Numbered from the stretch's first letter, positions 330 to 58,141 are shown. The stretch: 64,000 nucleotides of DNA from Candidatus Methanomethylophilaceae archaeon (GCA_944320495.1 CALUHR010000013.1:1-64000), one strand, 5' to 3'. Made by a program: numbers and translations. The notes: generated from the sequence alone by a model not told the origin.

Positions 330-863
330 TCGCTCGTTGCCGATGATGCGCACCTGACAGCTTCTCATCGTCTCCAGGGCGGAGGAGTGCATCTCCGGCG
401 TGGAGCCCGCGCAGCACGACACGTCCACCCACACATCCGCATCCGGAAGGAACGCACGGATCATCAGCGCATTGCTCACGACGCAGATGTCCGTGCACAG
501 GCCGATCACCCCGACGCTGACTGCTCCGGATTCGCGGAGGAACTCCGCGAGGTCCACCGATCCGAACGTGGGCTTCTCGAAACACAGGACACCTCTGGCG
601 GTCAAAGCCGCCTCCACCGGATCCGGCATCAACCAGCCGGGAGTCCCTCTGATGCAGTGGGGCACCGGCAGCATCCTGCCCTCCCTCGTTTCATGATAGT
701 CATCGCCATGCGTGTCCAGCGTGCACACGACCGTCCCCTCGAAGGATCCGATCCTATCGATCACGCGCGGAACGATTGCGGCCGCCTCGGGGGTGCCAAG
801 GGGACCGTCGATGAAATCGTTCTGCATGTCGACGACCACCAGGAACGTCCGATCGCTGTCCAT
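330..863 (-). CDS. pncA: Nicotinamidase/isochorismatase-family cysteine hydrolase
   Basis: Motifs VVDMQNDF, TLDTH, HC, EKPTFGS and GLCTDICV. Start is the ATG at 863 (MDSDRT). The family-like end CQVRIIGNE is followed by CGA at 332-330; the standard code runs on to TAG at 294. Confidence 0.8.
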
Positions 864-988
864 GATCCGGAGAACCGCTCCCGGCCTAAATCGGTTTGGC
901 AGGGAATGTCGTGACAGGGGATTCACATGCAGGCCAAATGATTCCGCCTAAACCTTTAAGAACGGTAAGCCTTTGTCCGCTCACAACT

Positions 989-1076
989 GTGGGAGTGGCC
1001 CAGCCTGGCAAGGCGTCAGACTGCTAATCTGATGTCACCATGTGACCCGAGGGTTCGAATCCCTCCTCCCACGCCA
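989..1076 (+). tRNA. tRNA-Ser(GCT), CCA encoded
   Basis: Acceptor GTGGGAG/CTCCCAC, anticodon arm TCAGA-CTGCTAA-TCTGA, long variable arm GTCAC-CAT-GTGAC, T arm GAGGG-TTCGAAT-CCCTC, then G and CCA. Confidence 0.95.
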
Positions 1077-1133
1077 TATAATTCTGAATCGCCCGTTGAG
1101 AATGCTGTTACCGCCCAACGGATCGTATCGGGA

Positions 1134-1613
1134 TCGGGACCCGTTGGTCCCGAAGACGTCCCTGCCATCCTTCGGCGGGATCCTTCCGCGGTCGTCGCCG
1201 CAGAACCCTTCGCGGACACGCTCCAGAAGTGAGTTGAGCGTCTCGCGCTCTGACGGGTCCAGACCGGCCGTGAGCTCGTCCTCCATCCTCCTGCGGATGG
1301 CCTCCATCCTCTGGACGGCCTCCCTGCCGCTTTCGGTCAGGGACACGAGCCTCACCCTGCGGTCGCTCTCGTCGGGGAGCTGTTCGACCAGACCCCTGCG
1401 CTCGAGGCTCTTGACCGCACCAGCCACCGTCGGGAACGCATACCCGTAGTACTCCTCCAGCTCCCTCATCCTCACCGGACGGCCCATGACTATGACGAAG
1501 CGCATGAAGCGGAGGTCCGTGTACGACATCCCGCAGGAGGAGAGCTCCTCCTCGAAGCGGCTGTCGAAACGGTTGGCGATCAGCTTGATCAGCATTCCGC
1601 TGTCTTCGGTCAT
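1134..1613 (-). CDS. MarR-family transcriptional regulator
   Basis: Winged helix with VKSLERRGLVEQLPDESDRRVRLVSLTESG. The first in-frame CGA at 1136-1134 gives 159 aa. The standard-code ORF (to 1035) would run antisense through the 3' half of tRNA-Ser. Confidence 0.85.
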
Positions 1614-1744
1614 GGGGCTTCCGTCCCCTGCGTCGTATATTATGGTGACGGGGGAAGCTTAGACGGGATGCGATGGATGGTCCGGAGGCCAGACGGTAGA
1701 ACGGAATAGGGTTTGAGGGGAGGGGATGCCCCCGCCCCGGGGGA

Positions 1745-2908
1745 TCACTCGTACGATCCGCGCCTCATCCTCTCGAGGGCCAGCTTGATCCTCTCGACGG
1801 GCTCGGTGACGGTCATACGGATGTATCCGTCGGCGCTCTCTCCGAACCCGTTTCCGGGCGTGACGATGACGCCGAGGTCGATCATCTTCTGGGTGAACTC
1901 GGCCGACGGCATGCCGCAGTCGAACCAGACGTAGAACGTGCCCTTGGGCATGACCACGTCGTACCCGAGCTCCCTGAGGCCCTCGACGAGGACCCTCCTG
2001 CGCTCGGCGTAGGTGGCCATGTTGTCCCTGACGGCCTGCGGGACCTCCCCGTCGTCGCCATAGAGGCTCAGGGCCTTGATGCCCGCGTCCTGGATGAAGG
2101 GCGGGGCGCCGGAGTCGGTCTGGCCCTTGCACTTGGTCAGCCCGGCGATCAGGTCGGGGTGGCCGACGGCGTATCCGAGCCTGAACCCGGTCATGTTGAA
2201 CGTCTTGGAGAACGAGCCGAACTCGATGGCGTCCGGTCCGACCTGGAGGATGGACGGCGCCCTGTAGCCGTCGTAGCACATCTCGGAGTAGGCGGCGTCG
2301 TAGCACAGGATGGTCTTGTTCTCCTGGCACCAGTCGTACACCTTCTTCAGGTACTCGATGTCGCAGGTGGCCCCCGTCGGGTTGTTCGGATAGTTGATGT
2401 ACAGCATCCTGGCGCCCTTGGGGCACTCGTCCACGTCGAGCAGCCAGTTCTTCTCGGCCCTCAGGGGGACCTTCACGCACTTGGCCTCGTTGAAGATCGT
2501 GGCCGCTCCCGAGTACACGGGGTATCCGGGGGAGGGGGCGACGATGGTCTCGCCGGCGTTGACGAACGCCTGGGCGATGTTGAAGATCGCCTCCTTTGAA
2601 CCAATCGTGATGCACACCTGGGTGTCCGGGTCTATGTCCAGCCCGAAGCGCTTCTTGTACCACTCGGCGACGGCCACGCGGAGGCGTCTCTCGCCCTGGG
2701 ACGAGGAGTACTTCTGGTTCTCGTTCCTGGCCGCGGACTCCGCCATGGCCTCGACGACGCACTCCGGCGTCGGGAGGTCGGGATCCCCGATCCCGAAGTC
2801 GATCATGTCCCATCCGGCCTTCCTCTTCTCCGCGGAGAGCTTCTCGAGCCTCACGAAGAGGTAGGGAGGGATCTGCTTCAACCTGTCTGCCTGTTCGAAT
2901 GTAGTCAT
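1745..2908 (-). CDS. dapL: LL-diaminopimelate aminotransferase
   Basis: Class I/II PLP aminotransferase motifs GIGDPD, NYPNNPTG, DAAY and SFSKTFNMTGFRLG; last gene of the lysine operon. Confidence 0.85.
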   Translation of the reverse strand: MTTFEQADRLKQIPPYLFVRLEKLSAEKRKAGWDMIDFGIGDPDLPTPECVVEAMAESAARNENQKYSSSQGERRLRVAVAEWYKKRFGLDIDPDTQVCITIGSKEAIFNIAQAFVNAGETIVAPSPGYPVYSGAATIFNEAKCVKVPLRAEKNWLLDVDECPKGARMLYINYPNNPTGATCDIEYLKKVYDWCQENKTILCYDAAYSEMCYDGYRAPSILQVGPDAIEFGSFSKTFNMTGFRLGYAVGHPDLIAGLTKCKGQTDSGAPPFIQDAGIKALSLYGDDGEVPQAVRDNMATYAERRRVLVEGLRELGYDVVMPKGTFYVWFDCGMPSAEFTQKMIDLGVIVTPGNGFGESADGYIRMTVTEPVERIKLALERMRRGSYE

Positions 2909-2912
2909 CGTA

Positions 2913-6348: not shown

Positions 6349-6371
6349 AGGTAGAACCTCCGGGACCGCCC

Positions 6372-7244: not shown

Positions 7245-7249
7245 CGTGA

Positions 7250-7672
7250 TCGTGCCTCCCCGTAATGCTCCTTCAGTATCAGCCTTGTCCTGGTGCTGAG
7301 GATGTTGTCGTACCGGCGGACCCTCTCGATGATCTCGTTGAGGTGCTGCGAGGACTCCACGTCGACGATCGCGATGATGTCCTGGTCGCCGGTGACCTCG
7401 AACACCTCGGTGACCCCGTCGTACCCGGCCAGCTCCCTGGCTATCTCCTGGGTGTCGGTGTTAACCGCGATGCTGATCTCCACCAGCGCCTTGACGTTCT
7501 TCGAGCTCGTCTTGATGGTGAACCCGCGTATGATGCCCTCCTCGACCATCTTGTGGACCCTGCTGCGCACGGTCCCCTCAGATACGCCGAGCTGGTTGGC
7601 TATCTCGACGAACGGACATCTCGAGTCCTTCTTCAGCAGCTCTATGATCTTCTTGTCGAGGTTGTCAATCAT
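7250..7672 (-). CDS. Lrp/AsnC-family transcriptional regulator heading the lysine operon
   Basis: LDKKIIELLKKDSRCPFVEIANQLGVSEGTVRSRV HTH plus a RAM domain (VFEVTGDQD). The first CGA (7252-7250) gives 140 aa ending 5 nt before the dapA ATG. The standard code extends 61 codons to 7067, into dapA. Confidence 0.9.
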
Positions 7673-7820
7673 ATCGATCACCCGGGCTCCGCCTGATGGT
7701 CCGAGTGAAGTGCGCCACGATATTAAATCTATGGGAAAACGCGGTCCGACGGGCGTTATCCGCAGTGGTCGGACCGCCGCCGGCGGGATGCGATGCCCGC
7801 CGGCTGCGAAATTCGCAGAA

Positions 7821-9556: not shown

Positions 9557-10393
9557 ATGGAACCGGAGGGCATCATCGGACTGCTGCAGACGTTTGTCGT
9601 CCTGACCGTCATGGCCTCCGGGGCCGTCTGCGACTCGAGGACCAGACGCGTCCCCGACGCGCACTGGCTCATCCTGTGCGTCACCGGGATCCCCCTGGCG
9701 GCCACCGGGATCGGGATCGGAGGCGGCCCCTGGGCGGGGGTGCTCTACGCCGCCGGCGGCCTCCTGCTCTCATGGTACATGCTGTCCGGAAGGCTGATCG
9801 GACCGACCGCCGCGCCGGTGGTGGCAGCGGGGTTCGCGATGATGGCCCTGCCGGTCCTGACCTCCGGGATCGCTGACGGGATCATCTCCGCCGCGATGTT
9901 CGCCATGTGCGTCCTCCTCCACAGATGCGGGCTTCTCACCGGAGGGGCGGACGCCAAATGCGCGATGACGCTGGCACTCGTCCTACCTTCTCTACCGGAG
10001 ACGTCGGTCGTCCCGCTGCTGTGGCACGGCTCGGCGCTGCCCCCCGTGCTGTCCGTCCTACTGCTGGCACTGGCGATCTCCCTCGCCGGGTCGCTGTGGA
10101 TAATGGCCCTGAACATCCGCGCAGGCTATACCGGAAAGGGGATGCTCACGACGTTGGAGACGGATGTAGGATCCATGGACCCGGACTTCCACTGGCCCGT
10201 CCAGAGGCCTGTGGGAGGGGATCTCGTCGGATGCAGGGGATCGCCCGGGACCGCGGCGGACATCATCCGCGAATTGCAGAATGCCGGGATCGCGAGGGCA
10301 CGCGCCGAGCTCCCGGTGCCGTTCGTCGCACCGATGTTCCTGGCACTCGCCCTGGTGCTGATCCTCGGGGACCCCGTCGGCGCACTATGCCGA
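9557..10393 (+). CDS. A24-family prepilin/preflagellin peptidase-like membrane protein
   Basis: AVCDSRTRRVPD, TGGADAK and C-terminal PVPFVAPMFLAL. Ends GDPVGALC then CGA at 10391-10393; standard end is 10468. Confidence 0.75.
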
Positions 10394-11390
10394 GGTCGAA
10401 CCCGCAGTTGGAGCACCTGGAACCGTCCAGCTCGGATGCGTCGACCGAAAACCCGAACCTGCGTATGACCGGCCTGCCGCACCTCGGACAGAAGGTGTCC
10501 CCCGGCCCTTCTGCGATGATGTTGCCGACGTAGACGAAGTTCAGACCCTCCTCGATGCCTATCTCCCTGCACCTGAGCACCGTCTCAACGGGCGTCCACG
10601 GGACGTCGGTCAGCTTGTAGTCCGGATGGAACCTGGTGAAATGGACGGGCACATCGGACGAGAGCTCCGACGCCACCCACGAGCAGAACGCACGCACCTC
10701 GTCCTCTGAGTCGTTGAGCCCCGGGATCACCAGGTACGTGAGCTCGAGATGCACCCCCTCGGAGAACACGATGCGGACCGAGTCCAGGACGTCCCGGAGA
10801 TGGGCACCGCACTCCCGCGTGTAGAACTCCTCGGTGAACCCCTTGACATCGATGTTCATGGCGTCCGCGATATGACATAGATCCCTGAGGAGGGCCTCGC
10901 ACGCCAGCCCGTTGGTCACCAGGACGATGCGTATGTCCGGGTCCACGGCGGCCACGTCGCGGATGTACTCGTACCAGATCATCGGTTCGTTGTATGTGAA
11001 CGCGATGACGCCCAGGCCCTCGCGCCTGCAGTGGGCCACCAGATCCTCCGGCGACACGTAGGTGGACCTCCTCCTGCCGGTCGGTATCGATGAAATCGCG
11101 AAGTTCTGGCAGTGGAGGCAGCGCATGTTGCACCCGGCGCCGCCTATGGACAGGCATCTCTTCCCGGGCATGTAGTTGTAGAGGGGCTTCTTCTCCATCG
11201 GGTCCACGCACATCGACGTGACCTTCCCGTAGCTGGACGCGAACAGCGTCCCGCCCTCGGCCCTGCGGGCCATGCAGCGCCCGGTCTGTCCCTCACCGAT
11301 CCTGCAGTGGTGCGGGCACAGGCCGCAGACGAAGACGTCGCCGTCCCTCTCGCAGTAAGCGGCCTCGATGCGCGGATCGGTATTCACCAT
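10377..11390 (-). CDS. amrS: AmmeMemoRadiSam-system radical SAM enzyme (PFL-activase-like)
   Basis: CGLCPHHC N-terminus, VDPMEKKPLY, CNMRCLHC radical SAM motif, FTYNEP, C-terminal CPRC...CSNC. Ends CGFDLGIVR then CGA (10379-10377); standard end is 10263. Confidence 0.85.
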
Positions 11391-12309
11391 AGGGGATCAC
11401 CGTCCTCTCGCCCCCGTCGATCAGGTGGGGTGCGCCGGTGTCGTTGACTATCCCGATGATCGAGAATGGCACCTCGGCCTCGTAGAGCCTGTCGAGCCCG
11501 TCCTGGGGCGCGGTGAAGACGAGCTCGTACTCCCCTCCCCAGCCCAGGAGCAGGTCCCTGACGTCCCTGCCGGACGCCTCGGCCATCTCATCGACCGACG
11601 GCCCCCTCGGTACGAACGACAGCTCCACCTCCATGCCCACGCCGGAGGCGGTGCATATGGTGTTCAGCGCCGTGCCGAGCCCGTCGGACAGGTCCATGCA
11701 CGACGTGACCACCCCCGTCGCGGCCATCGCCTCCCCCTCGGCCACCCTCGGGACCGGGACGTAGAGCTGGTTCCTGGCGTCCTCGGCATCGATGCCGAGC
11801 TCCAGCGAGACGAATCCCGCCGCCGGGCCGCCGACCGGCCCGGTCACTGCGACGAAGTCTCCCGGCCTGGCGCCGGAGCGGAGCATCGGCCTCCTGCCGT
11901 CCATGGATCCGAGCGCGGTCGTCGTGACCACCCCGGGACCCACCTTGGTGTCCCCACCGGCGATCCCGGTGCCGCAGAACTCGGCGCACTGGCTTATCCC
12001 ACTCATTATGTCATACGCGGCCTGGACGTCCAGGTCGCCCGGGAGGACCAGCGACGCCAGTATCCCCGTGGGGCGCGCGCCCATCGCCGCGAGGTCACTG
12101 AAGCTGACCGCCGCGGAATACCAGCCGAACTGCTCGTACGTCATGCCGGCGGGCATATGCCTGTCGAAGGTCACGGCGTCCGTGGAGACCACGACGCCCT
12201 TGCCGAGCACCGCGGCGTCGTCGCCGGGGCCGACCTCGCCCTCCCGGGCTATGAACGTCCCGAAGTCCTCTATGAGCTGCCTCTCGCCGATCTCTCCGAT
12301 CAGGGTCAT
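11377..12309 (-). CDS. thiL: Thiamine-monophosphate kinase
   Basis: GERQLI, GDDAA, SDLAAMGARP, GGDT, MDLSDGL and GGEYELVFT. The first CGA at 11379-11377 gives a 14-nt overlap with the amrS start; standard end is 11293. Confidence 0.9.
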
Positions 12310-12389: not shown

Positions 12390-14027
12390 TCATGCCTTGT
12401 TTAGTTCTTTGGCTTCTTTAAGATCAATTCTAGCCCTATAACCATGCTTCTGAAGCAGATACAGCAGTTCTGCACCATTGAGAAGAGTCAGAGGCTTGTC
12501 TTTGGCAAAATTGTAAGCATCGTTTCCGTAGTTTGAGGTTGTTACAAGAATTCCCTTTGTTGCACCCTCGTTCATCACCGTACCATACAGATCTCTTACT
12601 GCCGATACTCCGACCACGTTCGTGTACCTCTTTGCCTGAATGACAATCTTGCCACCACGTATCGGATCCGGGTCGAATGCCACTGCGTCTACACCACCAT
12701 CGCGACTGGCTTGTGTGATCTTAACCTCACCACCATTTGAACTGAACTCTTTCTCGAAGATTTCTCTGATGAGATTCTCGAAATCTTGCCAGTCAATTGC
12801 TGCTAGATTCACACTGTCATCGATTGTATCTACGACATTATAGCCATCTATGAATCTCTTATCCTCGCGAGACATTGTGATCAAAGGTGCTACAGGTGTG
12901 ACATTGGCCAGAGAAGCTGCGGACACGCCCTTGGAACTCTTGAACCATGCCTTAGGGTCAACAGATGAAAGGTTCACCTCTTCGAATGACTCGCGAGATA
13001 CATTAACTGAGAGGACATATGGTTCGATTTCCTTCCCAGTAGACTTGTCGATCGTACTGACTCTTCCATTGATTACGATAGCAGAGACGGGACAGTTAAG
13101 TTCTAGACTGAAAACGAAGTTGATACATTGGAGTACCATCTGGTAGATTACACTATCATACTTCTTTTTCAGATACGATTCTGCGAAATGAGTTTCCTTG
13201 AACTCATTTCTTGACTTGACGTAGGTTACAGCCTTCAATGTCGGAATATCTTCCAACTTTGGAAGCATATAATCTACAATCACGAGGTCTGTTTCAGGAT
13301 TGTATTCCACCTCAATCAGTTTATCGTAACTGAATGGGAGTGCGAGTCTCTCAATCGCCTCCCTGACATACCATTCAACAGAGGGTACATCACCAGATTG
13401 AACCTTCTGATAGAGAGCATCGATTTTTGAGTTCTCTGAATCACGAACTCTCTCGAACTCATTCTTCCTTTGCTCCCAGTTTGCTACTTCCTTGTTGTAA
13501 GCGTCTTGTGCGACCTTATTGTTATGTGTAACGCGATCGCATTCTCTTTTCCAAATTTCATAGTCTGATTTATAAGCAAGGTTGTCAGACTCTGTCAATT
13601 CGGCCATCTTTTTCTTTGATAGTTTGGCAAACAAAGTTGGCTGTGAATTGTACTTGGAAGACTTCTTATCAGGCTCAATCGGAAGTTTCTCGAACACTGG
13701 CCTAGAAGGGGAAGGTTCTTCGAACTCTGAGAAATCCTTGAACTCGTTGATAGTGAATTGGTGAGAGCCCAGATTATCCAGAAGAATCCTGTCCATTGCT
13801 TCCTGAACTTCTTCTGCCTGTGTTGTAATTTCTTTGGCATAGGCTATGGAGTCGGCTTCATCGCGAATCTTTGCTTCACGTGCTTGCTTTTTCTCCCACT
13901 GTTCGTCCCACTGATCTTTCAGAGCGCGTACCTTCTGATCCAGCTCATATTGAGTTGCTGCCTTGACTATGCGATATTTATGCAACCCCTCATGTGAAAC
14001 TTCAGCTTGGTATGGGTATGTCACCAA
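12390..14027 (-). CDS. Mrr-family (type IV-like) restriction endonuclease with long N-terminal coiled-coil region
   Basis: C-terminal Mrr_cat: WQDFENLIREIF, ASRDGGVD, IQAKRY, VGVSAVRDLYG, GILVTTS and LLNGAEL. Markedly more AT-rich than the flanks. Confidence 0.85.
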   Translation of the reverse strand: MVTYPYQAEVSHEGLHKYRIVKAATQYELDQKVRALKDQWDEQWEKKQAREAKIRDEADSIAYAKEITTQAEEVQEAMDRILLDNLGSHQFTINEFKDFSEFEEPSPSRPVFEKLPIEPDKKSSKYNSQPTLFAKLSKKKMAELTESDNLAYKSDYEIWKRECDRVTHNNKVAQDAYNKEVANWEQRKNEFERVRDSENSKIDALYQKVQSGDVPSVEWYVREAIERLALPFSYDKLIEVEYNPETDLVIVDYMLPKLEDIPTLKAVTYVKSRNEFKETHFAESYLKKKYDSVIYQMVLQCINFVFSLELNCPVSAIVINGRVSTIDKSTGKEIEPYVLSVNVSRESFEEVNLSSVDPKAWFKSSKGVSAASLANVTPVAPLITMSREDKRFIDGYNVVDTIDDSVNLAAIDWQDFENLIREIFEKEFSSNGGEVKITQASRDGGVDAVAFDPDPIRGGKIVIQAKRYTNVVGVSAVRDLYGTVMNEGATKGILVTTSNYGNDAYNFAKDKPLTLLNGAELLYLLQKHGYRARIDLKEAKELNKA

Positions 14028-14583: not shown

Positions 14584-15033
14584 ATGAGGAGCGCCGAGCT
14601 CGCCAGGGGGAGGGTCTTCATCCTGCGCCTGGAGGACGGCGAGGTCCTCCGCGAAACCATAGAATCATTCTGCAGGGACAACGGCATAGCTCGCGCCCTG
14701 GTGCACGTCACCGGCGCCGTGGATGAGGGGTCCCGCATGGTCAGCGGCCCGAGGGTCCCCGTGGGGGACAGGGTCGAGCCCATCGTCATCGAGCTGGAGG
14801 ACCGGTGCGAGGTCACCGGGCACGGCACCGTGTTCCCAGATGCGGACGGCAACCCGCTGCTCCATCTCCACGGCTCCGTCGGGAGGGAGGGGTTCTGCGC
14901 CACTGGCGACTTCGGCCCCGGGATGGTGTCCTGGCTCGTGATGGAGGTGCTCATAGAGGAGCTGGTCGGCGACGGCCCTGTCAGGGAGGAGTCCGACCCC
15001 AGGATAAGCGGTAAACTTCTGGAGATGAGACGA
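14584..15033 (+). CDS. PPC/DUF296-domain protein
   Basis: RVFILRLEDGE, GHGTV and PLLHLHGSVG. Ends KLLEMR then CGA at 15031-15033, overlapping the next ATG by 1 nt; standard end is 15147. Confidence 0.8.
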
Positions 15034-21647: not shown

Positions 21648-21944
21648 ATGGCATACGACCCGGATGTTGCGATAACGCTCTGGCCCGAATACTTCGACAA
21701 GGGACTCACCAGAGCCCAGGGCAGGAGGCTCCCCAAGGACCTCTGCGTCGCGAAGCCGGACCTGGACATGATCGCCAAGGGCGCGATGCTCCTGGACCTG
21801 GAGTACGAGGTCAGGGAGGACATGTCCTACCCGAAGGCGCCCCGTGAGAAGCACGGATGCGTCAAGGTCGAGAAGGGGAAGCTCTCCAAGACAGAGATCC
21901 TCCCGAGGATCGGACAGGTCCTCGTAGAGAACCAGGGAAGGCGA
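21648..21944 (+). CDS. srp19: Signal recognition particle 19 kDa protein
   Basis: LWPEYFD, GRRLPK and YPKAP. Ends ENQGR then CGA at 21942-21944, 5 nt before the nnr TTG; standard end is 21956. Confidence 0.9.
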
Positions 21945-21949
21945 TCCCC

Positions 21950-23326
21950 TTGCTGACAGCCCTGGACTCCAGGGTGTCCGATGCCAACGCCGAGGCCCTC
22001 GGCGTGAGCGTCAGGGACCTCATGGGCAACGCGGGCAGATCCGTCTCGGACCTCCTGGGGTCGAGATATCCCGACTCCCGCATAATCTTCGTCTGCGGCT
22101 CCGGCAACAACGGCGGGGACGGCTTCGCCGCCGCCCTCGGCATGGACCCCTCCCGTGTGGAGGTGGCGCTCCTATGCGAGCCCTCCAGGATACATTCGGA
22201 CGAATCCAGATTCTACTACTCGCTGCTCGAATGCCCCATCACCCGCTATACCGCGGGGATAATCTCGGAATTCGACGTGGTCGTCGACTGCGCCCTGGGG
22301 ACGGGCGTCTCCGGAAGGGCGAGGGGGGACTACGCCGCGTTCATCGAGGAGACCAGGACCTGCGGGAGACCGGTCGTGTCCGTCGACGTGCCGTCCGGCC
22401 TCGGGACGGACCTGGCAGTGCATCCCGACGTCACCGTCACCTTCATGGACCTGAAGGAGGGCATGGACCCGTCCAACAGCGGTGAGATCATCGTCACGGA
22501 CATCGGGATCCCGTACGAGGCCTACCGTCTTGTAGGCCCCGGCGACATGCTCAGATACCCCGTTCCCGGAGCATCCAGCCACAAGGGGCAGAACGGGAGG
22601 CTCATGGTCATCGCGGGCGGCCCGTACTTCGGAGCACCGGCTATGGCATGCCTGTCGGCCCTACGCACAGGGACGGACATCGTGAGGCTGTTTTCGCCTG
22701 AATCGGTCCATCTGCAGGCGTCCCTGTCGACACCGGTCCTGATGGTCACGGACCTGCCCGGGGACAGGCTCACGCCGGATTCCGTGGACATGCTCCTCGG
22801 GGAATCGCAGTCCTACGATGCGGTCCTCATCGGCCCCGGCCTCGGGACATCCGAGGATACGATGGAGGCGGTCCGCGCATTCGTGACCCGCTGCGACAGA
22901 CCCGTGGTCATCGATGCCGACGGGATAACCGCCGTCAGAGGGATGAGGCTTAGCACGGAGACGGTCCTGACCCCCCATCGCGGGGAGTTCCAGGGACTGG
23001 GAGGAGGCAACCCCGAGGACATCGCCCGCATGACGGGCTCCGTCATCCTGCTCAAGGGGGCGGACGACATCGTGACCGACGGATCCAGGACGAGGACCAA
23101 CCGCACCGGCACCCCGGCAATGACCGGTGCCGGAACCGGGGACGTGCTAGCGGGATGCGTCGCCGGACTCATGGCCAAAGGCATGACGGCATTCGATGCC
23201 GCCTGTCTCGGAGCCTACATCTGCGGGAAGGCGGGGGAGATCGCATTCTCCGAGAGGTCATACGGGCTCATCGCCACAGACGTCATAGATTCCATACCGG
23301 CGGTCCTCAGGGATGGCCTCAGATGA
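21950..23326 (+). CDS. nnr: Bifunctional NAD(P)HX epimerase/dehydratase
   Basis: LMGNAG, GSGNNGGDGF, DVPSG, HKGQNG, IGPGLG, IDADG, LTPHRGEF and GAGTGDVLAG; TTG start at 21950. Confidence 0.92.
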   Translation: MLTALDSRVSDANAEALGVSVRDLMGNAGRSVSDLLGSRYPDSRIIFVCGSGNNGGDGFAAALGMDPSRVEVALLCEPSRIHSDESRFYYSLLECPITRYTAGIISEFDVVVDCALGTGVSGRARGDYAAFIEETRTCGRPVVSVDVPSGLGTDLAVHPDVTVTFMDLKEGMDPSNSGEIIVTDIGIPYEAYRLVGPGDMLRYPVPGASSHKGQNGRLMVIAGGPYFGAPAMACLSALRTGTDIVRLFSPESVHLQASLSTPVLMVTDLPGDRLTPDSVDMLLGESQSYDAVLIGPGLGTSEDTMEAVRAFVTRCDRPVVIDADGITAVRGMRLSTETVLTPHRGEFQGLGGGNPEDIARMTGSVILLKGADDIVTDGSRTRTNRTGTPAMTGAGTGDVLAGCVAGLMAKGMTAFDAACLGAYICGKAGEIAFSERSYGLIATDVIDSIPAVLRDGLR

Positions 23327-32967: not shown

Positions 32968-33258
32968 ATGGTGGTCAAATCGGTGCGCGGCAGACGCCGC
33001 TACACGGCGTTCGAGGTACCCTCCAACGCGGACAGGCACAGAGCGGAGACGGCCGTCTCCTCGGTGCGTTCGGCGAAGGTCGTCACCTGCGGCCACGGGT
33101 ACGCCGTGATCCGCTCGCTGCCGTCCGAGCGTGCTACCCTGGAGGACGCGATGTGTTCCGCGATACCCGGGAGCCGCCCGTTCGACTGCTCCGGGACCCT
33201 GAGGGCGCTGAGGACCAGGCACCCCCAGCTCGCCGCCCCGAGACGCAGAAGGAAGCGA
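32968..33258 (+). CDS. Rpp14/Pop5-family RNase P protein component
   Basis: MVVKSVRGRRRYTAF and SGTLRAL, in the conserved position upstream of psmA. Ends APRRRRK then CGA at 33256-33258; the standard code runs to 33306 across the psmA TATA box. Confidence 0.75.
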
Positions 33259-38111: not shown

Positions 38112-38831
38112 ATGGAAGCTCTCGAACTGCAGGACGTCAGAAAGTCCTACGGCAACAGGGAGGCGGTCCACGGCATCTCGCTGACGGTCCATGAGGGGGA
38201 GATTTTCGGCCTCATCGGACACAACGGGGCCGGCAAGACCACCACGCTCCGCATGATATCGACGCTCCTCCGTATAACGTCCGGGAGCATCAGCGTCTTC
38301 GGCCACGACGTGGCCACCGAACCCGACGAGGTCAGGAGGATCATCAGCTACCTCCCCGAGGACGCCGGCGCCTACAAGGACCTCACCGGCAGACAGTACA
38401 TGGAGTTCATGGCCAGCTTCTTCGCGTCCGGCGAGGAGAAGGCCGAGATGGTCCGCAAGGGCATAGAACTGGCAGACCTGGGCGAGAGGATAGACTCCAA
38501 GGTCGACACGTACAGCAAGGGGATGATGAGGAGGCTCCTCATCGCGAGGGCCATCATGCCGTCCCCCAGGCTGGCGATCATGGACGAGGTCACCTCTGGA
38601 CTGGACGTCATCAACGCCTACGAGGTCAGGGAGGTCATCAGGTCCATCGCGAAGACCGGGGTCACCGTGATAATGTCGTCCCACAACATGTTCGAGGTCG
38701 ACATGCTCTGCGACCGCGTCGGGATGATCGACCAGGGGAACCTCATCCTCCTCGGGACCCCTGCGGAGCTCAAGGAGAGGTTCGGGGTGGAAACCCTCGA
38801 AGAGGTGTTCGTCAAGGCGGTGAAAGGATGA
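38112..38831 (+). CDS. ABC transporter ATP-binding protein (NatA/ABC-2 type)
   Basis: GHNGAGKTT, YSKGMMRR signature, IMDEVTSGLD and SSH. Confidence 0.92.
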   Translation: MEALELQDVRKSYGNREAVHGISLTVHEGEIFGLIGHNGAGKTTTLRMISTLLRITSGSISVFGHDVATEPDEVRRIISYLPEDAGAYKDLTGRQYMEFMASFFASGEEKAEMVRKGIELADLGERIDSKVDTYSKGMMRRLLIARAIMPSPRLAIMDEVTSGLDVINAYEVREVIRSIAKTGVTVIMSSHNMFEVDMLCDRVGMIDQGNLILLGTPAELKERFGVETLEEVFVKAVKG

Positions 38832-40156
38832 GCCACATGACATCCATCATCAGGAAGGAGGTCAGGGAGATGCTGACCCCGGGCTCCGTCATATCCGTGC
38901 TCGTGATGGTCATCATATTCGCGGGCATGGGAGGACTCATCGGCACGGAGGTCGACAAGGCGGCAGAGCTGCCGAGCTTCGGCCTCGTGGCCGAGGAAGG
39001 CGACTACCTGGAAGGCTGGGACCTCATCGGCACCCTCCAGGGATACTACGGCGACGAGTCCGACAAGATCGTCATCATGGACGCCGCCTACGGGGATGAC
39101 GAGGCGATCATGGCCGAGATGGAATCTCGCGGCATCGCCAACGTCCTCGCGTTCCCGGACAAATCGACCTTCGAGGCATGCATAGCCGGTTCGGAGCAGA
39201 TCACCGTAGAGCAGTACTACCTCTACGAGCCCACCGGCATGTTCGGCACCATATCGTCAACTGTCATGTCCTCGATCGTCTCACTCGTCGAGGGCAGCCT
39301 CACGCAGGAGCTCATATCCCTCTCCGGGGACGGCGGAGCGAACATCAACTACATCATGGACCCGATGTACACCGGCGGGGACTCGGTCAGCACCGTCATC
39401 GACGGAGTGGCCCACTCCGGGGTCACCCCCTCGGACATCGACACCGAGATCTCCAGCCAGACCATGATGATCCCGCTGGTCATCATGATCATCATCATGA
39501 TGGTCGGGAGCATCGTCATCAGCTCCATCGGTTCGGAGAAGGAGAACAAGACCCTGGAGACGCTCCTCACCATGCCGATCAAGAGGACGTCCATCGTCAG
39601 CGGGAAGATCGCCGCGGCAGCCATCGTGGGACTCGTCTACGGCCTCGCCTACATGGTCGGCATGAGCATCTACATGGGTGCGATGACGGGCGTCGTCGGC
39701 TCCGGCCAGGGAACCGACCTGGAGAGCCTCGGGCTGGCGCTCGACGTGGGAGACTGGGCCCTCGTGATGGTGTCCATGTTCCTGTCCATCGTCTGCGCCC
39801 TGGGCATCTGCATGATCCTGGGTGCCTTCGCCAAGAACTACAAGTCCGCCCAGACCATGACCCTGCCCATCAGTATCCTGGCCATGATCCCGATGTTCGT
39901 GATCATGTTCTCCGGATGGTACGGATGCGGAGGGTTCCTTCAGGCGATCCTGTTCGTCATCCCGTTCTCGCACCCGATGATGGCCATGCAGGCCCTCATG
40001 TACGGGGACATCACCCTGGTGCTCGGCGGGATCGGGTACATGGCCGTGTTCGCCATCGTGACCATACTGATCACGGTGAGGATGTACAACTCCGACATCC
40101 TCATCACCGGCCTGGGCCAGAACAAGTGGGTCCAGACCCTCACCGGGAGGAAGCGA
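38828..40156 (+). CDS. ABC-2 type permease (NatB-like)
   Basis: IIRKEVRE, EKENKTLETLLTMP, SGKI, multiple TMs and IPFSHP. Ends TLTGRK then CGA at 40154-40156, 1 nt before the next TTG; standard end is 40360. Confidence 0.88.
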
Positions 40157-42292: not shown

Positions 42293-42871
42293 ATGTCGAT
42301 ACGGGAGGACATGGAGCTTCGCAGACTCAGGGAGAGCTTCTTGGAGGGGCCGTCCGTCGACCGCGACGGCTATGAATACTTCGTCAACCCGCTCTCCGAC
42401 GGCCTCCCCCGCGTGGACAGGGAGCTGCTGGACGAGGCGGTGTCAGGCATCCTGGAGGTCGCGGAGCTGGACTGCGATGTGATCCTCGCCCCGGAGGCCA
42501 TGGCCCTGCCGATAGCCGCTGGGATCACACTGAGGACCGGCATCCCCTATCTGGCGATACGCAAGCGCCCGTACGGGCTCCCCGGCGAGATCTCGTTCGG
42601 GAAGCGCACAGGGTACTCCGAATCGATGATGCACGTCTCGACGCTGAGACCGGGCGAGAGGGTGGCGATCGTGGACGACGTCCTCGACACGGGCGGGACT
42701 GCGAGGGCCACCGTGGACGCGCTCCGCGGGGCTGGGATCGTCGTCACGGAGATCGTGGCCGTATTCGACCGCAATCCCGACAGCGACGCCCTGTCCGCCG
42801 AGCTCGGGGTGCCCATCAGGACGCTGCTGAGGGTGGGCGTCGAGGACGGAGGGCTCATCGTCAGGGATCGA
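42293..42871 (+). CDS. hpt: Hypoxanthine/guanine phosphoribosyltransferase (archaeal)
   Basis: YEYFVNPLSDG, EAMALP, IRKRPYG and IVDDVLDTGGT. Ends GGLIVRD then CGA at 42869-42871; standard end is 43066, inside the next gene. Alternative start at 42311. Confidence 0.85.
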
Positions 42872-42948: not shown

Positions 42949-44217
42949 ATGGACCCCTCCCTGCTGGCAGTATGTCTCGCGATGTCCGCGGTCGGATGCG
43001 CACTGGGCCTGTTCAGCGGCCTCGTCCCAGGGATACACGTCAACACGCTGGCGGCTATGCTGCTGACCGCATACCCTGCCCTAGAGGCCGCGCTGCCGCT
43101 GGGAGAGACGGAGGCGGCCGTCGCCGTGGGATGCTGCGTGATGGCGGCCTCCGTGGTCCATTCCTTCGTAGACTTCGTGCCCTCGGTCTTCATAGGGGCG
43201 CCGGATGCGGAGGACGCCGTCTCAGTGCTCCCCGGACACCGTCTGCTCCTGGCCGGGAGGGGCATGGAGGCCGTCCGTGCGGCGGCCGTCGGAAGCCTGG
43301 TCGGATGCTCCGCCTCGCTGCTGCTGGCACTTCCCCTCCAATGGGCCCTCATTCACGGTGCGGAGGGACTGCTGGACCTCCTGACGCCTGCTGTGCTTAT
43401 GCTGGCGTGCGCTGTCCTGCTCTCGTCCGAGTGGCGCAGAGGGAACGGCCTGTGGGGTCCCGCCCTGATGCTCCTCTCCGGAACCCTCGGGCTGGGCTGT
43501 ATGGTGCTGCCGATACCCATGGACGGCGTGCTGGGGGAGGGGAGCGTCATGATGCCCCTCCTCACCGGGCTGTTCGGGGTGCCCGTGCTGCTGGAGACCG
43601 GCAGGGCATCCAAGATACCTCCGCAGAAGGACATCGTCTCGGATCCCGTGGGGGTGCGCCCGGGGCTCCGCGGCGTCCTGATGGGGGCCGTCGCCGGATG
43701 GTTCCCCGGGATCACGTCCACCGTCGGGGCATCGATGTCCGCCGCGGTGCTGCCCGAGAGGGGCCCGGCGAGATTCATCTCCACGGTCGCCTCGATAGGC
43801 ACCGTCACGTCTGTGCTGGCACTTGTCACCCTGTCCGTCTCGGGGAACGGCAGGTCGGGGACCGCCCTGGTCATCGGGGACATATTGGAGGGGTCCCTCG
43901 GCGGGTTCGCCTCGGGTCCGTTCCTGATGCTGCTGCTATCCGCGGCGGTGGCATCGCTCGCGGGATACTGGCTCACGATAGCCAGCGGAAAACTTCTGTC
44001 CCGCACCGTCGGCAGGATCGACCCACTGAGGCTCAGCAGGGCGATGCTGGCTCTCCTGACGGCGCTGACGTTCGCCCTGAACGGCCCGGCTAGCCTGCTG
44101 GTCCTCGTCTCAGCCACGGCCGTCGGGCTGCTGCCCGGGATGTGCGGCACCGGGAGGGTCATCCTCTGCGGAAGCCTGATACTCCCGGTGCTCGCGTTCA
44201 AGCTGGGTCTCGCCCGA
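42949..44217 (+). CDS. TctA-like (tripartite tricarboxylate transporter family) integral membrane protein
   Basis: GLVPGIHVNT, HSFVDFVPSVFIGAP, VLPGHRLLLAGRG and PLLTGLFG. Ends AFKLGLA then CGA at 44215-44217, abutting the thioesterase stop; standard end is 44829, which would span the whole thioesterase gene and enter the helicase gene. Confidence 0.82.
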
Positions 44218-48446: not shown

Positions 48447-48460
48447 GAGGGTTGCTGGGA

Positions 48461-50476: not shown

Positions 50477-50675
50477 GATGGGTCTACCGCGCATTCGTGA
50501 GACCGCTGACCACCCTCCTATGATGCATGATCCTGGGACACGCCCGACGTCGATCCCGGCGATGGACCTGGCCTTGACGTTCCTGGTCGCGTAAATCCGC
50601 GAGGACATAATGGAATTGGGCGACACCAAGCGGTTCGACGGCATGACGACGCTGCTGGCCCGCTACGACGGACCG

Positions 50676-51014
50676 TCGCACCAGGCGCGAGCGGACCATG
50701 TCCTGATAGGCCGCGCCCCAGAGGTCCAGCTCCTCCAGGACCGGGAGGACGGACATGCCGACGCTCGTAAGCGAGTACTCGACGCGCTGGGGCGAGTCGC
50801 AGACCACAGTGCGACTGATCAGACCGTCGGACTCCAACTCCCTCAGGGTTATCGTGAGCATGCGCGACGACCCCTCCCCAGTGAACCGCTTGAGCTCGTT
50901 GAAGCGCATCCGCCCATGGGAGGACAGCATCCACAGGACGAGGATCTTGTGCTTGCCGCCGAGGAGCCTTATCGTGGTGGCGAACGGGGTCTCCCCCTCG
51001 GGTATCGGGTCCAT
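50676..51014 (-). CDS. HxlR-family transcriptional regulator
   Basis: LLGGKHK, RFNEL, MLTITLRELESDGLISR and RVEYSLT. The first CGA (50678-50676) gives 112 aa; the standard code gives 176 aa (to 50484). Confidence 0.87.
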
Positions 51015-51087
51015 GCGACCCCATCGGAAGGGAGGGAATTAACGGTTCCTCCTACCTATATTCTATATCTATGGCGATGCGGGACGC

Positions 51088-51951: not shown

Positions 51952-52199
51952 ACCAATACTATACTTTTGGATAGTATATGTCATTTTATACTGTACTTGA
52001 TATAAATAAACAGATAGCCATCATGGAACCAGATGCCTCCAGGCGTCCGCCATCGATATGCCACGAGACGGCCTCCGTCGGGACCGGCCTGCAGAGACCT
52101 GGGGCCGGTCCCGAAACCAGTCTACGATGGCAATGTTTAAGATATCCTAAATGCCTGGAAGGCCATCGGTCCGCCGAGACGGACCCGGAAGTGAATGAT

Positions 52200-52418
52200 A
52201 TGGCCAAGACAACGATCAAGATCGAGGGAATGATGTGCGAGGGCTGCGTGAAGAGCGTCAGAGAGTCCCTCGAGAAGGTGCCCGGCGTCAAGAGCGTCGA
52301 TGTCAACCTGAAGAAGGGCACGGCCGTTGTCCAACAGGACGGCGTGGCCGACGAGGCCCTGATCAAGGCGGTCGTCGACGCGGGCTTCCGCGGAACCGTT
52401 AAGCACGGGCTCTTCCGA
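52200..52418 (+). CDS. copZ: Heavy-metal (copper) chaperone, CopZ-like
   Basis: [13 protein letters not shown] motif. Ends HGLF, then CGA (52416-52418, overlapping the copA ATG), then TGA (52419-52421). Confidence 0.88.
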
Positions 52419-55280: not shown

Positions 55281-55364
55281 GACAGCAGGAATGGGCACCT
55301 GGGATTTAACAGAACCCAAAGGCTAAAAGCACCGGACCCATCGGAGGTCCAGGTTGTGACAGCC

Positions 55365-56069
55365 ATGCCTCTCGAAGCAGCGGAGATGAAGAGGATCGCG
55401 GCCGAGGCCGCGGTCGATGCGTACGTCAAGGACGGAATGAACGTCGGTCTCGGGACCGGCTCCACCGCGTACTACGCCATCCGCAGGATTGGACAGCTCG
55501 TCACGGAGAACGGATACAGGCTCACCTGCGCCGCCACATCTATTCAGAGCGAGGAGATCGCGAAGGGGTTCGGCATCGAGGTCGTGGACATCGACTCCGT
55601 GGGAAAGCTCGACGTCACCATCGACGGCGCCGACGAGATTGACCCCAAGCTCAACCTCATCAAGGGCCTCGGGGGCGCCCTCCTCAGGGAGAAGATCGTC
55701 GCCGCTGCCACCGTCAGGGAGATAATCGTGGCCGACGACTCCAAGCTCGTCGAGAAGCTGGGGACCAAGGCCCCGCTCCCGGTGGAGGTCCTGAAGTTCG
55801 GGCACGAGCACACCAGCTTCGCCCTCAAGAGGCAGGGCTGCGAGCCCGTACTCCGCATGAGGGACGGCGAGCCCTTCGTGACCGACGGGGGGAACTACAT
55901 CTACGACTGCAGGTTCCCCAACGGCATAGACAACCCGTACTTCATCGAGTCCAGGATCGACGTCATCCCCGGCGTCGTCGAGAACGGCCTGTTCCTCAAC
56001 ACCGCATTCGACACCGTCGTCTGCGACCCCGAGGGCAACGTCTCCAAGGCGTCCGAGAGGGAAGCCTGA
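55365..56069 (+). CDS. rpiA: Ribose-5-phosphate isomerase A
   Basis: VGLGTGST, TIDGADE, KGLGGALLREK, TDGGN and GVVENGLF. Confidence 0.96.
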   Translation: MPLEAAEMKRIAAEAAVDAYVKDGMNVGLGTGSTAYYAIRRIGQLVTENGYRLTCAATSIQSEEIAKGFGIEVVDIDSVGKLDVTIDGADEIDPKLNLIKGLGGALLREKIVAAATVREIIVADDSKLVEKLGTKAPLPVEVLKFGHEHTSFALKRQGCEPVLRMRDGEPFVTDGGNYIYDCRFPNGIDNPYFIESRIDVIPGVVENGLFLNTAFDTVVCDPEGNVSKASEREA

Positions 56070-56179
56070 TTCCTGTCACTACTATACGCGCGTATAGGAG
56101 GGGTCCCCCGGCCAGATAATTAGCCTTATATAGGACCCCCCTATTAGCACCTCCCCGTTCACATTCTAGGTGATTCACA

Positions 56180-56458
56180 ATGAAGATGCCCAGGACTGTC
56201 AAGAGATACTGTCCCTACTGCCAGGCCCACACCGAGCAGGAAGTGGAGAGGGTCAAGAAGAAGAAAGCCAGCGAGCTCAAGTGGGGTCAGAGGAGATTCA
56301 GAAAGGTCACCGCCGGATACGGTGGTTTCCCCAGGCCCAAGCCCGAGGGAAGGGAGAAGCCGACCAAGAGGATCAACCTCAGGTACAGGTGCACCCAGTG
56401 CAAGAAGGCCAACATCTCCCCCTGCATCCGCGCGAAGAAGTTCGAGCTCACGGAGTGA
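56180..56458 (+). CDS. rpl44e: 50S ribosomal protein L44e
   Basis: [22 protein letters not shown] and [15 protein letters not shown]. Confidence 0.96.
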
Positions 56459-56463
56459 TCCAG

Positions 56464-56631
56464 ATGACTGGAGATTTCATCAAGGTCAAGTGCCCCGACT
56501 GCGAGGCTGAGCAGATCGTTTTCAGAAAGGCCGCCACCAAGGTGACCTGCCACGTCTGCGGTTCCACGCTCGTCGTCCCCAAGGGCGGCGTCGGCGACAT
56601 CAAGGGCGAGATCCTCGAGGTAGTCGGCTGA
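56464..56631 (+). CDS. rps27e: 30S ribosomal protein S27e
   Basis: FIKVKCPDC...QIVF...CHVCG...PKGG. Confidence 0.95.
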
Positions 56632-57413
56632 TGGCAAGGGTCAGAGGCTTCCCGGAGAACGGCGAGCTCGTCGTGTGCACCGTCAAGAGCGTCAAGAATT
56701 TCGGCGCTTTCGTCTCACTCGACGAGTACGACGACAAGGAGGGATTCGTCCACGTCCGGGACGTCGCCACTGGCTGGGTAAAGTACATCAGGGACTACGT
56801 AAGGGAAGGTCAGAAGGTCGTCTGCAAGGTCCTGGGCGTGGATTCCTCGAAGGGCCACATCGACCTTTCCCTGAAAGCGGTCAACGACCATCAGAAGAGA
56901 GAGAAGATCCAGCAGTGGAAGAACGAGAAGAAGGCCGAGAAGCTGGTGGAGATCGTCGCCGAGAGGATGAAGATCTCCATCGACAAGGCCTACGACCTGT
57001 TCGGGAACGAGCTGCTGGAGGACTACGAGTCCCTCTATGATGCCTTCGAGTCCGCCGTCGCGGACACCGAGGCCTTCCTGGAGGACTACGAGGGCGCGTG
57101 GATCGACACATTCCTGGAGGTTGCCAGGGAGAACGTCGCCCCTCCGTCCGTCCAGATCGACGGCATCCTCGAGATGACCTCCTACGCCCCCAACGGCATG
57201 GAGCTCGTCCGCGACGCCCTGCTCAAGGGCATCGAGGCCGCCGACGGAGCCGACGTGGAGATCACCTGCGTCGGATGCCCCAGATACAGGGTCCTGGTCA
57301 GGGCCCCCGAGTACAAGGAGGCCGAGGAGGTCCTCAGGGACGTCTCCAACGCCGCCATCGGCGACCTGACCTCCAAAGGCGGCACCGCCGCCCTTAAGCG
57401 CGAGAGCAAATGA
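56631..57413 (+). CDS. eif2a: Translation initiation factor 2 subunit alpha
   Basis: FPENGELVVCTV, GAFVSLDEY, KGHIDLSLK and GCPRYR. Confidence 0.96.
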   Translation: MARVRGFPENGELVVCTVKSVKNFGAFVSLDEYDDKEGFVHVRDVATGWVKYIRDYVREGQKVVCKVLGVDSSKGHIDLSLKAVNDHQKREKIQQWKNEKKAEKLVEIVAERMKISIDKAYDLFGNELLEDYESLYDAFESAVADTEAFLEDYEGAWIDTFLEVARENVAPPSVQIDGILEMTSYAPNGMELVRDALLKGIEAADGADVEITCVGCPRYRVLVRAPEYKEAEEVLRDVSNAAIGDLTSKGGTAALKRESK

Positions 57414-57580
57414 GCTCACGCATGAGGCGCTGCGCATCATGCGGGCGCTATTCTCTTGAGGCGGTCTGCCCCGCATGCGGGGCGGCCACCTCCTGTCCGA
57501 TCCCACCTAAGTATTCTCCAGACGACCGTCTCGGCAAGTACCGCCGCCAGCAGGTCATCGAGTCATGGAAGAGGGAGCGA
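57410..57580 (+). CDS. nop10: H/ACA RNP protein Nop10
   Basis: CASCGRYSL...CPACG...PPKYSPDDRLGKYRR. A CGA at 57578-57580 gives 56 aa; the standard code gives a 333-aa ORF running antisense through the next gene. Confidence 0.92.
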
Positions 57581-58141
57581 TCGCTCCCTGTCGTCGTACA
57601 TCACCCTGTACTCCGAAGAGGTGTACAGCGGCGAGAACCAGGCGTACTTGAACCAGCTCCACAGGGACAGCTCGTCCTCCATCATGGGCATGTAGTACCT
57701 GCGTATGGGCGCCCAGAACATCACGGCGATCACGGCGAGAGCGAAGGGCGTCACCAGAAACGGGTTCATGACCACCAGCGACGAGGCCGAGAGCGGATCG
57801 TTCCCGTACCAGGCGATCAGATTGAAGATCACCAGGAGCATCGCGGCGCGTACCGCCTTCTTCCACGCCTTCGGCCTGCGGGACGACACGACGAGCAGGG
57901 AATCCATCGTCACGAGCATCATCGCCATGTCCACCAGGAAGGTGGCGATCGACACGAACTGGTTTCCATAGCCCTCGTTCATGCCCATCGCAAGGACGGC
58001 CAGCTTGGTCAGGTAGATGGCGACGATGATGACAAGGAAAGACTGCGCCACCTTGAGGACGAACGGACGCGCTCCCCTGTGGAAGAGCCCCTCCGCCGTC
58101 TCGGACGGCGACCAGCTCGAATCCTCCCGGAATCTGGGCAT
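57581..58141 (-). CDS. Hypothetical membrane protein (about 4 TM)
   Basis: Several hydrophobic helices and host-like codons. Ends YDDRE then CGA (57583-57581), abutting the nop10 CGA; standard end is 57563. Confidence 0.7.

Follow-up and report, generated by a model that had tools for sequence, protein, structure and literature searches.

CGA as a probable stop codon in the gut methanogen genus Candidatus Methanoprimaticola

Can an arginine codon end translation in a free-living archaeon? The question is raised by the stretch of 64,000 nucleotides analysed here (G000:C13:1-64000, the window in what follows). It comes from a genome (G000) of 1.77 Mb in 14 contigs with 62% G+C, which belongs to the genus called Candidatus Methanoprimaticola (g1; family Methanomethylophilaceae, order Methanomassiliicoccales). 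An initial annotation of the window listed sixteen genes that reach an in-frame CGA at or near their expected end, and proposed that this codon is a terminator, in an undescribed variant of the genetic code. All sixteen positions are CGA on the coding strand, in frame and at gene ends. For gene calling, a codon model was trained on 870 long open reading frames (ORFs) from the genome, and CGA was added to the stop codons. The window is then tiled into 66 genes, of which 49 end with TGA and 16 with CGA, while one runs off the window edge (self-trained caller, with nop10 placed manually). None of the 66 genes called in this way ends with TAA or TAG. The core of the proposal receives strong support from a step in coding potential at CGA, from the stop columns of orthologues, from the contrast with other arginine codons within genes, from the number of CGA-ended genes and from control genomes. 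Together, these comparisons indicate that CGA is very probably a functional terminator in G000 and in the genus.

CGA within genes and at gene ends

The genome-wide counts agree with what the initial annotation had seen in the window. The interior of genes is nearly devoid of CGA, and gene ends are enriched in it. Long ORFs contain only 3-13 in-frame CGA codons per mid decile, compared with about 60 CGG codons, and 228 in the last decile. In the 154 ORFs that have a CGA in their second half, the coding potential falls from +0.29 to -0.43, exactly at the first such codon. The same genome-wide test detects no such step at CGG, CGT or AGA. In-frame codons with coding signal on both sides number 464 for CGG, 896 for CGT and 941 for AGA, but only 7 for CGA, and 3 of these 7 are merely junctions between neighbouring genes in the same frame. 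When the genome is called anew, 1172 of the 1644 genes end with TGA, 403 with CGA (24.5%), 52 with TAA (3%) and 17 with TAG (1%).

The surroundings of the terminator CGAs are also distinctive. The +4 position is U in 54% and C in 17% of the cases, and the -1 position is U in 9%. Overlaps of stop and start of the CGATG type account for 21.6% of the CGA terminators, compared with 7.4% of TGA terminators in a TGATG overlap. A standard backup stop follows within five codons at 22.8% of the CGA and 16.3% of the TGA terminators (P=0.004), an excess that fits a slightly leaky terminator.

Orthologues were compared in syntenic regions from three further species of the genus (G004, G008 and G015) and from two outgroup families; these regions contain no orthologues of the pncA and MarR genes. 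In this comparison, which the initial annotation had suggested, TGA stands in the identical alignment column in orthologues of the Lrp, amrS, srp19, thiL, pop5, copZ, ABC permease and A24 genes. The exchange also runs in the other direction, since several genes that end with TGA in G000 have orthologues with CGA ends in G008 or G015. The thiL, TctA and PCC genes end with CGA in G004 as well. TGA and CGA are interchanged at the level of orthologues in seven other species in all (G001, G003, G004, G008, G010, G015 and G018).

Forcing CGA as a stop creates tails beyond it, which can be scored as coding-like or not. Four genomes of the genus were subjected to this test, of which two (G008 and G015) are closed, and all four are positive. 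The ratio of non-coding-like to coding-like tails is 33:2 in G000, 3:0 in G004, 4:1 in G008 and 1:0 in G015. Homology-aligned codons in three other genomes of the genus contain 0-2 CGAs per 16-19 thousand. The share of genes that end with CGA varies widely within the genus, from 24% in G000 to 10% in G004, 5% in G015 and 3% in G008. The genome comparisons establish that reading frames have lost nearly all their CGAs and that the codon now stands, by way of TGA-to-CGA transitions, at 3-24% of gene ends.

Seven sister genera (200 kb each, with a model trained on each) and outgroup genomes (50-71 kb each) served as controls. Their tails behave in the opposite way, with coding-like to non-coding-like ratios of 25:3 in g11, 12:1 in g16, 34:0 in g18, 85:1 in g20 and 5:1 in g23, and of 29:0 in the outgroup genome G025. 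In the two remaining genera, g17 (G087, a closed genome of 1,666,795 bp) and g15 (G036), CGA is near absent, with one mid-ORF CGA per about 46,000 and 50,000 codons, respectively, and the few cases are mixed (loci L249-L278). Judged by these frames, use of CGA as a terminator is absent from five of the seven sister genera and from one outgroup family, and the evidence for g15 and g17 is equivocal. These two genera, which have a normal tRNA-Arg(UCG) stem, may represent intermediates of the reassignment. A recoding of the whole family, which the presence of CGA in all 80 aRF1 loci of the family had suggested, was considered and rejected for g11, g16, g18, g20 and g23, in view of their coding-like tails.

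CGA is followed by TC in half of the window sites, and the resulting CGATC contains GATC. An assembly artefact, or miscalls linked to GATC methylation, were nevertheless rejected as explanations, because the sites span more than one motif and recur across independent assemblies. The pattern is shared by eight or more species that stem from different projects, closed genomes included.

The aRF1 gene and tRNA-Arg(UCG)

One of the seven CGAs with coding signal on both sides lies in the gene for the release factor aRF1 (G000:C2:86932-86934, L043), at the arginine of ...SIAA-R-LKTY. This is residue 78, a universally conserved arginine that corresponds to R81 of human eRF1 (by alignment offset to PDB 1dt9). 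The reading frame is continuous across the codon, and no frameshift is needed. Since aRF1 is essential and occurs as one copy per genome, its CGA must be read as sense at residue 78. CGA cannot therefore be an absolute stop, a point that the initial annotation had missed.

The position of this codon is conserved in most of the genes. We compared 56 aRF1 genes at the level of the genus (17 + 2 + 37 public loci, the latter with at least 82% identity and possibly overlapping the first two sets). None of them has more than one in-frame CGA, and 52 of the 56 have it at R78. Exceptions are a CGA at residue 25 in G005 and in L174, and at residue 11 in L171. Among the 17 genomes of g1, R78 is encoded by CGA in 16, and G005 has a lysine codon (AAG) in its place; the aRF1 gene of G012 is incomplete, because its contig ends at about residue 270. 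In 12 outgroup genomes, residue 78 is encoded by CGG, CGC, AGG, CGT or AGA, and 1-4 CGAs are found at other arginine columns. The context U-CGA-C is invariant across all 16 genomes, and the preceding codon is always GCT or TCT, although GCT makes up only 6% of the alanine codons in G000 and flanking synonymous sites vary. Among terminator CGAs, the context of the aRF1 codon is disfavoured.

Public loci extend this picture to the family. Each of the 80 aRF1 loci from the family contains one or more CGAs in frame. The 36 g1-like loci have exactly one, always at residue 78, and the other loci have CGA at residues 25, 11, 123, 50 and elsewhere. The flanking genes provide a control within each locus. 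In the g1-like loci, one CGA in each of 36 aRF1 genes compares with 3 CGAs among 3838 arginine codons in the flanks. In the other genera, CGA accounts for 57 of 840 arginine codons in aRF1 and for 44 of 3882 in the flanks.

The initial annotation had envisaged that tRNA-Arg(UCG) is lost, which turned out to be wrong. A search of G000 with ARAGORN identifies tRNA-Arg genes with the anticodons UCU, CCU, CCG, GCG and UCG. The last of these lies at G000:C13:413317-413390 (L063/L068), and is kept in at least 16 genomes of the genus, where it is under selection. It is retained because the CGA of aRF1 needs to be read as sense. Its D-loop GGATA is common to other arginine tRNAs. Homologues with the UCG anticodon were found in 11 further g1 genomes, and the alignment shows covariation, with six pairs changed on both sides and a score that is reached by 0 of 500 shuffles. 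The compensatory changes are located in the acceptor stem and in the pairs of 27-29 with 41-43 of the anticodon stem; none was found in the T stem.

The anticodon stem of this tRNA is defective, with only 4 bp, in all 16 g1 genes seen. The 31:39 pair is an A.A mismatch in G000, and none of 11 distinct sequences can pair these two positions, which are occupied by A.A, C.A or U.C. A covariance model (R1) was used to find the tRNA in the other subclade of the genus and in relatives. In all four genomes of this subclade (G005, G007, G008 and G015), the mismatch is at 27:43 instead, and the loop is CCUCGAC, in which position 33 is C and not the near-universal U. Intact stems of 5 bp (C31-G39 or U31-A39) are present in five outgroup and four sister-genus genomes. 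The sole stem mismatch seen outside g1 is a 28:42 C.A mismatch in g16, which does not stop at CGA.

The aRF1 protein itself offers few clues. Changes confined to g1 (D17, C142, V250 and I270) all lie outside the decoding motifs. Near the NIKS motif, Q53, A56, T63 and M65 distinguish g1 from the outgroup families, and were rejected as candidates, as they are common to sister genera in which CGA does not act as a stop. For these two reasons, no residue can be assigned to recognition of C at codon position 1. Around the catalytic GGQ (residues 178-185, G000 numbering, L043), the genus has HHQGGQSSVRF, and the outgroup families have G or R at 178, K, M or R at 179, A at 184 and L or Q at 185.

A few other in-frame CGAs in G000 are worth recording. 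At G000:C8:55685-55687 (L064:886-888), a CGA followed by C is found inside a Flavodoxin_4 domain, with the match to the model (10-152/155) spanning the site. Either the codon is read through here, or the new stop has disrupted the gene. At G000:C13:194143-194145 (L065), a single CGA links the frames of a SIS (GmhA-like) protein and of a HAD phosphatase (GmhB-like). No start codon is present at this locus upstream of the catalytic DxD motif of the HAD part, and the pair may be a read-through fusion of two enzymes of the heptose pathway. Finally, at G000:C5:178733-178735 (L066), a CGA (in CGA-CTG) with two-sided coding signal occurs in an ORF without Pfam family, in which the part beyond the CGA resembles a membrane helix.

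Mechanism, precedents and alternatives

The comparisons across the genus establish three elements that a mechanism has to combine, namely reading frames that end at CGA, a tRNA with a conserved stem defect, and an aRF1 gene that, judged by its conserved frame, requires read-through in a fixed context. The best overall explanation is likely to be that CGA is a leaky stop, that the tRNA is weakened and that aRF1 is subject to feedback. In ordinary contexts, which prefer CGA-U, aRF1 would outcompete the weakened tRNA-Arg(UCG). In the aRF1 mRNA, the U-CGA-C context would let the tRNA insert arginine at some rate. Low termination activity would then lead to the production of full-length aRF1, in a negative feedback loop comparable to the one with the in-frame UGA of prfB. 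Whether aRF1 itself is the agent, and its CGA the feedback sensor, could go either way on the genomic data. Put forward tentatively, and with slightly more doubt than trust, is the complete picture of a codon with dual meaning, which would be a stop read by aRF1 by default and arginine at one site in aRF1 by virtue of the weakened tRNA, with the sister genera as living intermediates.

The parallel with prfB is close in some respects. In this gene, which encodes the bacterial RF2, ribosomes pass an early in-frame UGA by slipping into the +1 frame on a slippery sequence, stimulated by a Shine-Dalgarno element. Both cases feature an early terminator codon in the frame of a release factor, and in both the codon and its context are conserved, while synonymous neighbours drift. 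In contrast to prfB, the frame is unchanged in aRF1, where the cognate tRNA would insert a conserved arginine, and the feedback is one that we infer.

Several points weigh against a CGA stop that is read by aRF1. The whole case rests on comparative genomics, and a bias in gene calling could account for part of the excess of backup stops. No eRF1-type factor is, to our knowledge, on record as reading C at the first codon position. There are also no genus-specific substitutions within the NIKS, YxCxxxF or GT-x motifs of aRF1. The initial annotation had looked to these motifs for a sign of CGA recognition, and they are intact. The 4-bp anticodon stem of a trypanosomatid tRNA raises near-cognate reading and does not make the tRNA weaker. 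Moreover, a single CGA in aRF1 is found also in sister genera that use CGA as a rare sense codon, which implies that it is older than the stop function or not tied to it. The aRF1 CGA could instead sense the supply of tRNA-Arg(UCG).

A 4-bp stem also takes part in a change of code in two protists. Kachale and colleagues are said to have described, in Nature in 2023, that UGA is reassigned in Blastocrithidia and Condylostoma by a tRNA-Trp with a 4-bp stem together with a mutant eRF1. There as here, the tRNA with the shortened stem occurs in exactly the lineage with the changed code, and the balance between a tRNA and an eRF1-type factor is shifted at one codon. However, the change in Methanoprimaticola is from sense to stop, the tRNA is the cognate one, the mismatch is at 31:39 or 27:43, and the decoding motifs of aRF1 are unchanged. 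PMC13092985 gives background to this reassignment, and bacteria and protists are the organisms in which anticodon stems of 4 bp have been studied.

The alternative that survives best is that CGA is an unassigned, hungry codon. Ribosomes would stall at CGA for want of a good tRNA-Arg(UCG), and would be released by rescue (splitting by aPelota/ABCE1, followed by peptidyl-tRNA hydrolase), in which case the aRF1 CGA would report tRNA supply instead of release factor activity. The lack of genus-specific change in the codon-reading motifs of aRF1 is in keeping with this scenario. So is the finding that the tRNA stem is what differs in step with the stop function, being broken in the genus and intact in nine of ten relatives outside it, and that g17 and g15 avoid CGA nearly wholly without clearly using it as a stop. 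Known unassigned codons, CGG in Mycoplasma capricolum and AGA/AUA in Micrococcus luteus, provide a precedent for a codon of the arginine box with near-zero use, a state that g15 and g17 resemble. However, such codons are not known to end genes, whereas G000 has 403 CGA ends, in columns where relatives have TGA. A quarter of its genes, including the essential srp19, nop10 and thiL, would have to rely on slow rescue. The stop-like preference at +4 (U in 54%) and the CGATG overlaps (21.6%) also fit less well, and it would be hard to see why CGA is retained in the aRF1 gene and not, for example, in the gene for ArgRS. We consider a hungry codon unlikely for these reasons.

The initial annotation had also raised C-to-U editing, as in plant organelles, by which CGA would become UGA in the mRNA and the code would remain standard. 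Editing of every CGA would explain both the free interchange of CGA and TGA at orthologous stop positions and the avoidance of CGA within genes. Against this, we know of no C-to-U editing of mRNA in archaea, and the 403 sites have no common motif beyond the preference for U at +4. General editing would, in addition, truncate the essential single-copy aRF1, and it leaves the conserved tRNA with the UCG anticodon unexplained, which makes this scenario very improbable. Finally, it is barely conceivable that CGA is ordinary arginine followed by long junk tails, or a sequence error for TGA, despite the presence of the cognate tRNA gene and the run-on ORFs called by public annotation pipelines, since the tails are strongly negative in coding potential, rich in CGA, without homology and run antisense through neighbours, orthologues stop in the identical column, control genomes show the opposite behaviour, and an error would have to recur in at least eight species, some of them with closed genomes, and in the case of srp19 on 106 contigs.

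If CGA is a stop, the closest precedents are in organelles. Sense codons have become stops in vertebrate mitochondria (AGA/AGG, NCBI table 2), in Scenedesmus mitochondria (UCA, table 22) and in Thraustochytrium (UUA, table 23). Further cases have been described in green algae (PMC6821328, PMC12574857). In Methanoprimaticola as in organelles, the codon is lost inside genes and turns up at gene ends that are marked by a standard stop in relatives. In contrast to organelles with about a dozen genes, a free-living archaeon with about 1700 genes is concerned here, the cognate tRNA is kept, and the gene for the release factor itself requires the codon as sense. Our literature search found no sense-to-stop change outside organelles, and no description of CGA as a stop in Methanomassiliicoccales. 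The Codetta paper mentions neither Methanomassiliicoccales nor Methanomethylophilaceae, and the literature on Methanoprimaticola is, judged by its titles, ecological or taxonomic. The initial annotation knew of no report of CGA as a stop. This has to be qualified in that Melnykov (bioRxiv 10.64898/2026.04.02.715157) speculates on such a change. In that work, CGA is missing from the domains of two archaeal metagenome-assembled genomes that align to hidden Markov models, and a stop is raised as a possibility. The two genomes are different from ours in that they come from a hydrothermal-vent lineage, have CGG as tryptophan and lack a tRNA-UCG; the preprint does not look at gene ends and makes no claim.

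If confirmed, CGA would be the first sense codon turned stop in a free-living, non-organellar organism, and the genus concerned consists of methanogens from the guts of humans and animals. With graded relatives, a retained and crippled tRNA, and a release factor gene wired to the new stop, the models of an ambiguous intermediate and of codon capture would become testable within one family. Either an eRF1-type factor that accepts C at position 1, or rescue that is efficient enough for hundreds of genes, would be new. There would also be practical consequences, as wrong C-termini and false overlaps would affect as much as a quarter of the proteins predicted for these genomes. Public collections (NCBI, ENA and Logan were compared) hold run-on and not CGA-ended proteins, as seen for HxlR (176 amino acids, window 50487-51014, the only form), MarR (192 amino acids, window 1038-1613, again the only form) and SRP19 (102 amino acids, window 21648-21953, on 106 public contigs).

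The sixteen gene ends of the window

The bodies of the sixteen CGA-ended genes contain no internal CGA. Their mean codon log-odds range from -0.10 (nop10, 56 codons) to +0.47, compared with -0.24 to -0.97 for the frames beyond the CGA, which hold up to 14 more CGAs (in the nop10 tail). For 13 of the sixteen proteins, cut at the CGA, the Pfam match finishes within six positions of the model end; neither pop5 nor the membrane protein has a match in Pfam. Stopping at CGA also removes implausible overlaps to which the initial annotation had drawn attention, with nop10 reduced from 333 to 56, HxlR from 176 to 112 and TctA from 626 to 411 amino acids. The overlap of MarR with a tRNA gene is real under the standard code, as the standard ORF (1035..1613) enters tRNA-Ser (989-1076). 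The copZ, srp19 and membrane-protein sites rest on orthologues, because they have no tail, a tail of 3 codons and a tail of 5 codons, respectively.

At the start of the window, on the minus strand, an isochorismatase/pncA-like gene (333-863) ends with CGA at 330..332. The Isochorismatase match covers positions 1-171/175, and the tail of 11 codons has a log-odds score of -0.65 and 2 further CGAs. On the same strand, a MarR-family gene (1137-1613) has its CGA at 1134..1136, supported by the Pfam match and by the log-odds of the tail. The Lrp/AsnC gene (7253-7672, minus strand) stops at 7250..7252. Its AsnC_trans_reg match (2-73/73) ends at residue 135 of 140, orthologues in G004, G008 and G015 have TGA in the exact column of the CGA, and the tail of 60 codons scores -0.52.

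Two genes on opposite strands follow. The radical-SAM (amrS-like) gene (10380-11390, minus strand) ends with CGA at 10377..10379, where three genomes of the same genus have TGA in the same column; its tail of 37 codons contains 5 further CGAs and has a log-odds score of -0.87. The membrane gene similar to A24 peptidases (9557-10390, plus strand) ends with CGA at 10391..10393. Its orthologues have TGA at +0/+1, the tail scores -0.63, and the Pfam match to Peptidase_A24 is weak. The gene of the thiL/AIR-synthase family (11380-12309, minus strand) stops at 11377..11379, with an AIRS_C match to 1-152/156, and the column contains CGA in G004 and TGA in G008 and G015.

The PCC-domain gene (14584-15030, plus strand) has its CGA at 15031..15033, a PCC match to 1-116/117 and an orthologue in G004 with the CGA end mentioned above. 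The stop overlaps the ATG of the next gene as CGATG, within aga CGA tgg, and the following ORF has its start at 15033. Downstream on the same strand, srp19 (21648-21941) ends with CGA at 21942..21944. The SRP19 match covers 1-89/95, and TGA stands in the same column in three genomes of the same genus. The next such end belongs to a small gene (32968-33255, plus strand) with CGA at 33256..33258, for which TGA is found in G004 and G008 and CGA in G015. The initial annotation had called it pop5, a name that, given the lack of a Pfam match, is unconfirmed.

Three genes lie further along the plus strand. The ABC-2 permease gene (38828-40153) stops at the CGA at 40154..40156, with an ABC2_membrane_3 match to 4-346/347, TGA in the column of G004 and a tail of 67 codons that scores -0.62. 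In the phosphoribosyltransferase (hpt-like) gene (42293-42868), with CGA at 42869..42871, the Pribosyltran match covers profile positions 26-127/158 only. The tail has 64 codons and scores -0.31, and the G004 orthologue ends with TGA within a few residues. The TctA-family transporter gene (42982-44214) ends at 44215..44217, with a TctA match to 5-419/423 and CGA in the G004 column. The initial annotation was right that its standard ORF crosses two genes, over which it extends for 203 further codons.

On the minus strand, the HxlR-family regulator gene (50679-51014) has its CGA at 50676..50678. The HxlR match covers 1-88/91 within the 112 amino acids, and the tail of 63 codons scores -0.38. The copZ gene (52200-52415, plus strand) ends at 52416..52418, with an HMA match to 1-61/62 and TGA in the G004 column. 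Its CGA overlaps the ATG of copA as CGATG and is directly followed by TGA, so that there is no tail; the site is consistent with termination at CGA, and weak if taken alone.

The last two ends abut each other as CGATCG. On the plus strand, nop10 (57410-57577) has CGA at 57578..57580, and the Nop10p match (1-47/52) falls within its 56 amino acids. The standard frame runs for 276 codons beyond the CGA, passes 14 further CGAs and is antisense to the adjoining genes. Among relatives, nop10 ends with CGA in G018 and G010, and with CGA in G003 as opposed to TGA in its close relative G001. The membrane-protein gene on the minus strand (57584-58141) ends with CGA at 57581..57583. Its tail of 5 codons scores -0.97, and the G004 orthologue ends with TGA two codons off.

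One further gene of the window stands apart from the sixteen. An ORF similar to Mrr-type restriction endonucleases (12390-14027, minus strand, 545 amino acids) is without CGA and has a codon usage that is atypical for the genome. Its log-odds vary from -0.03 to -0.41 along the ORF and fall to -1.49 in the final block. The ORF was probably acquired horizontally.

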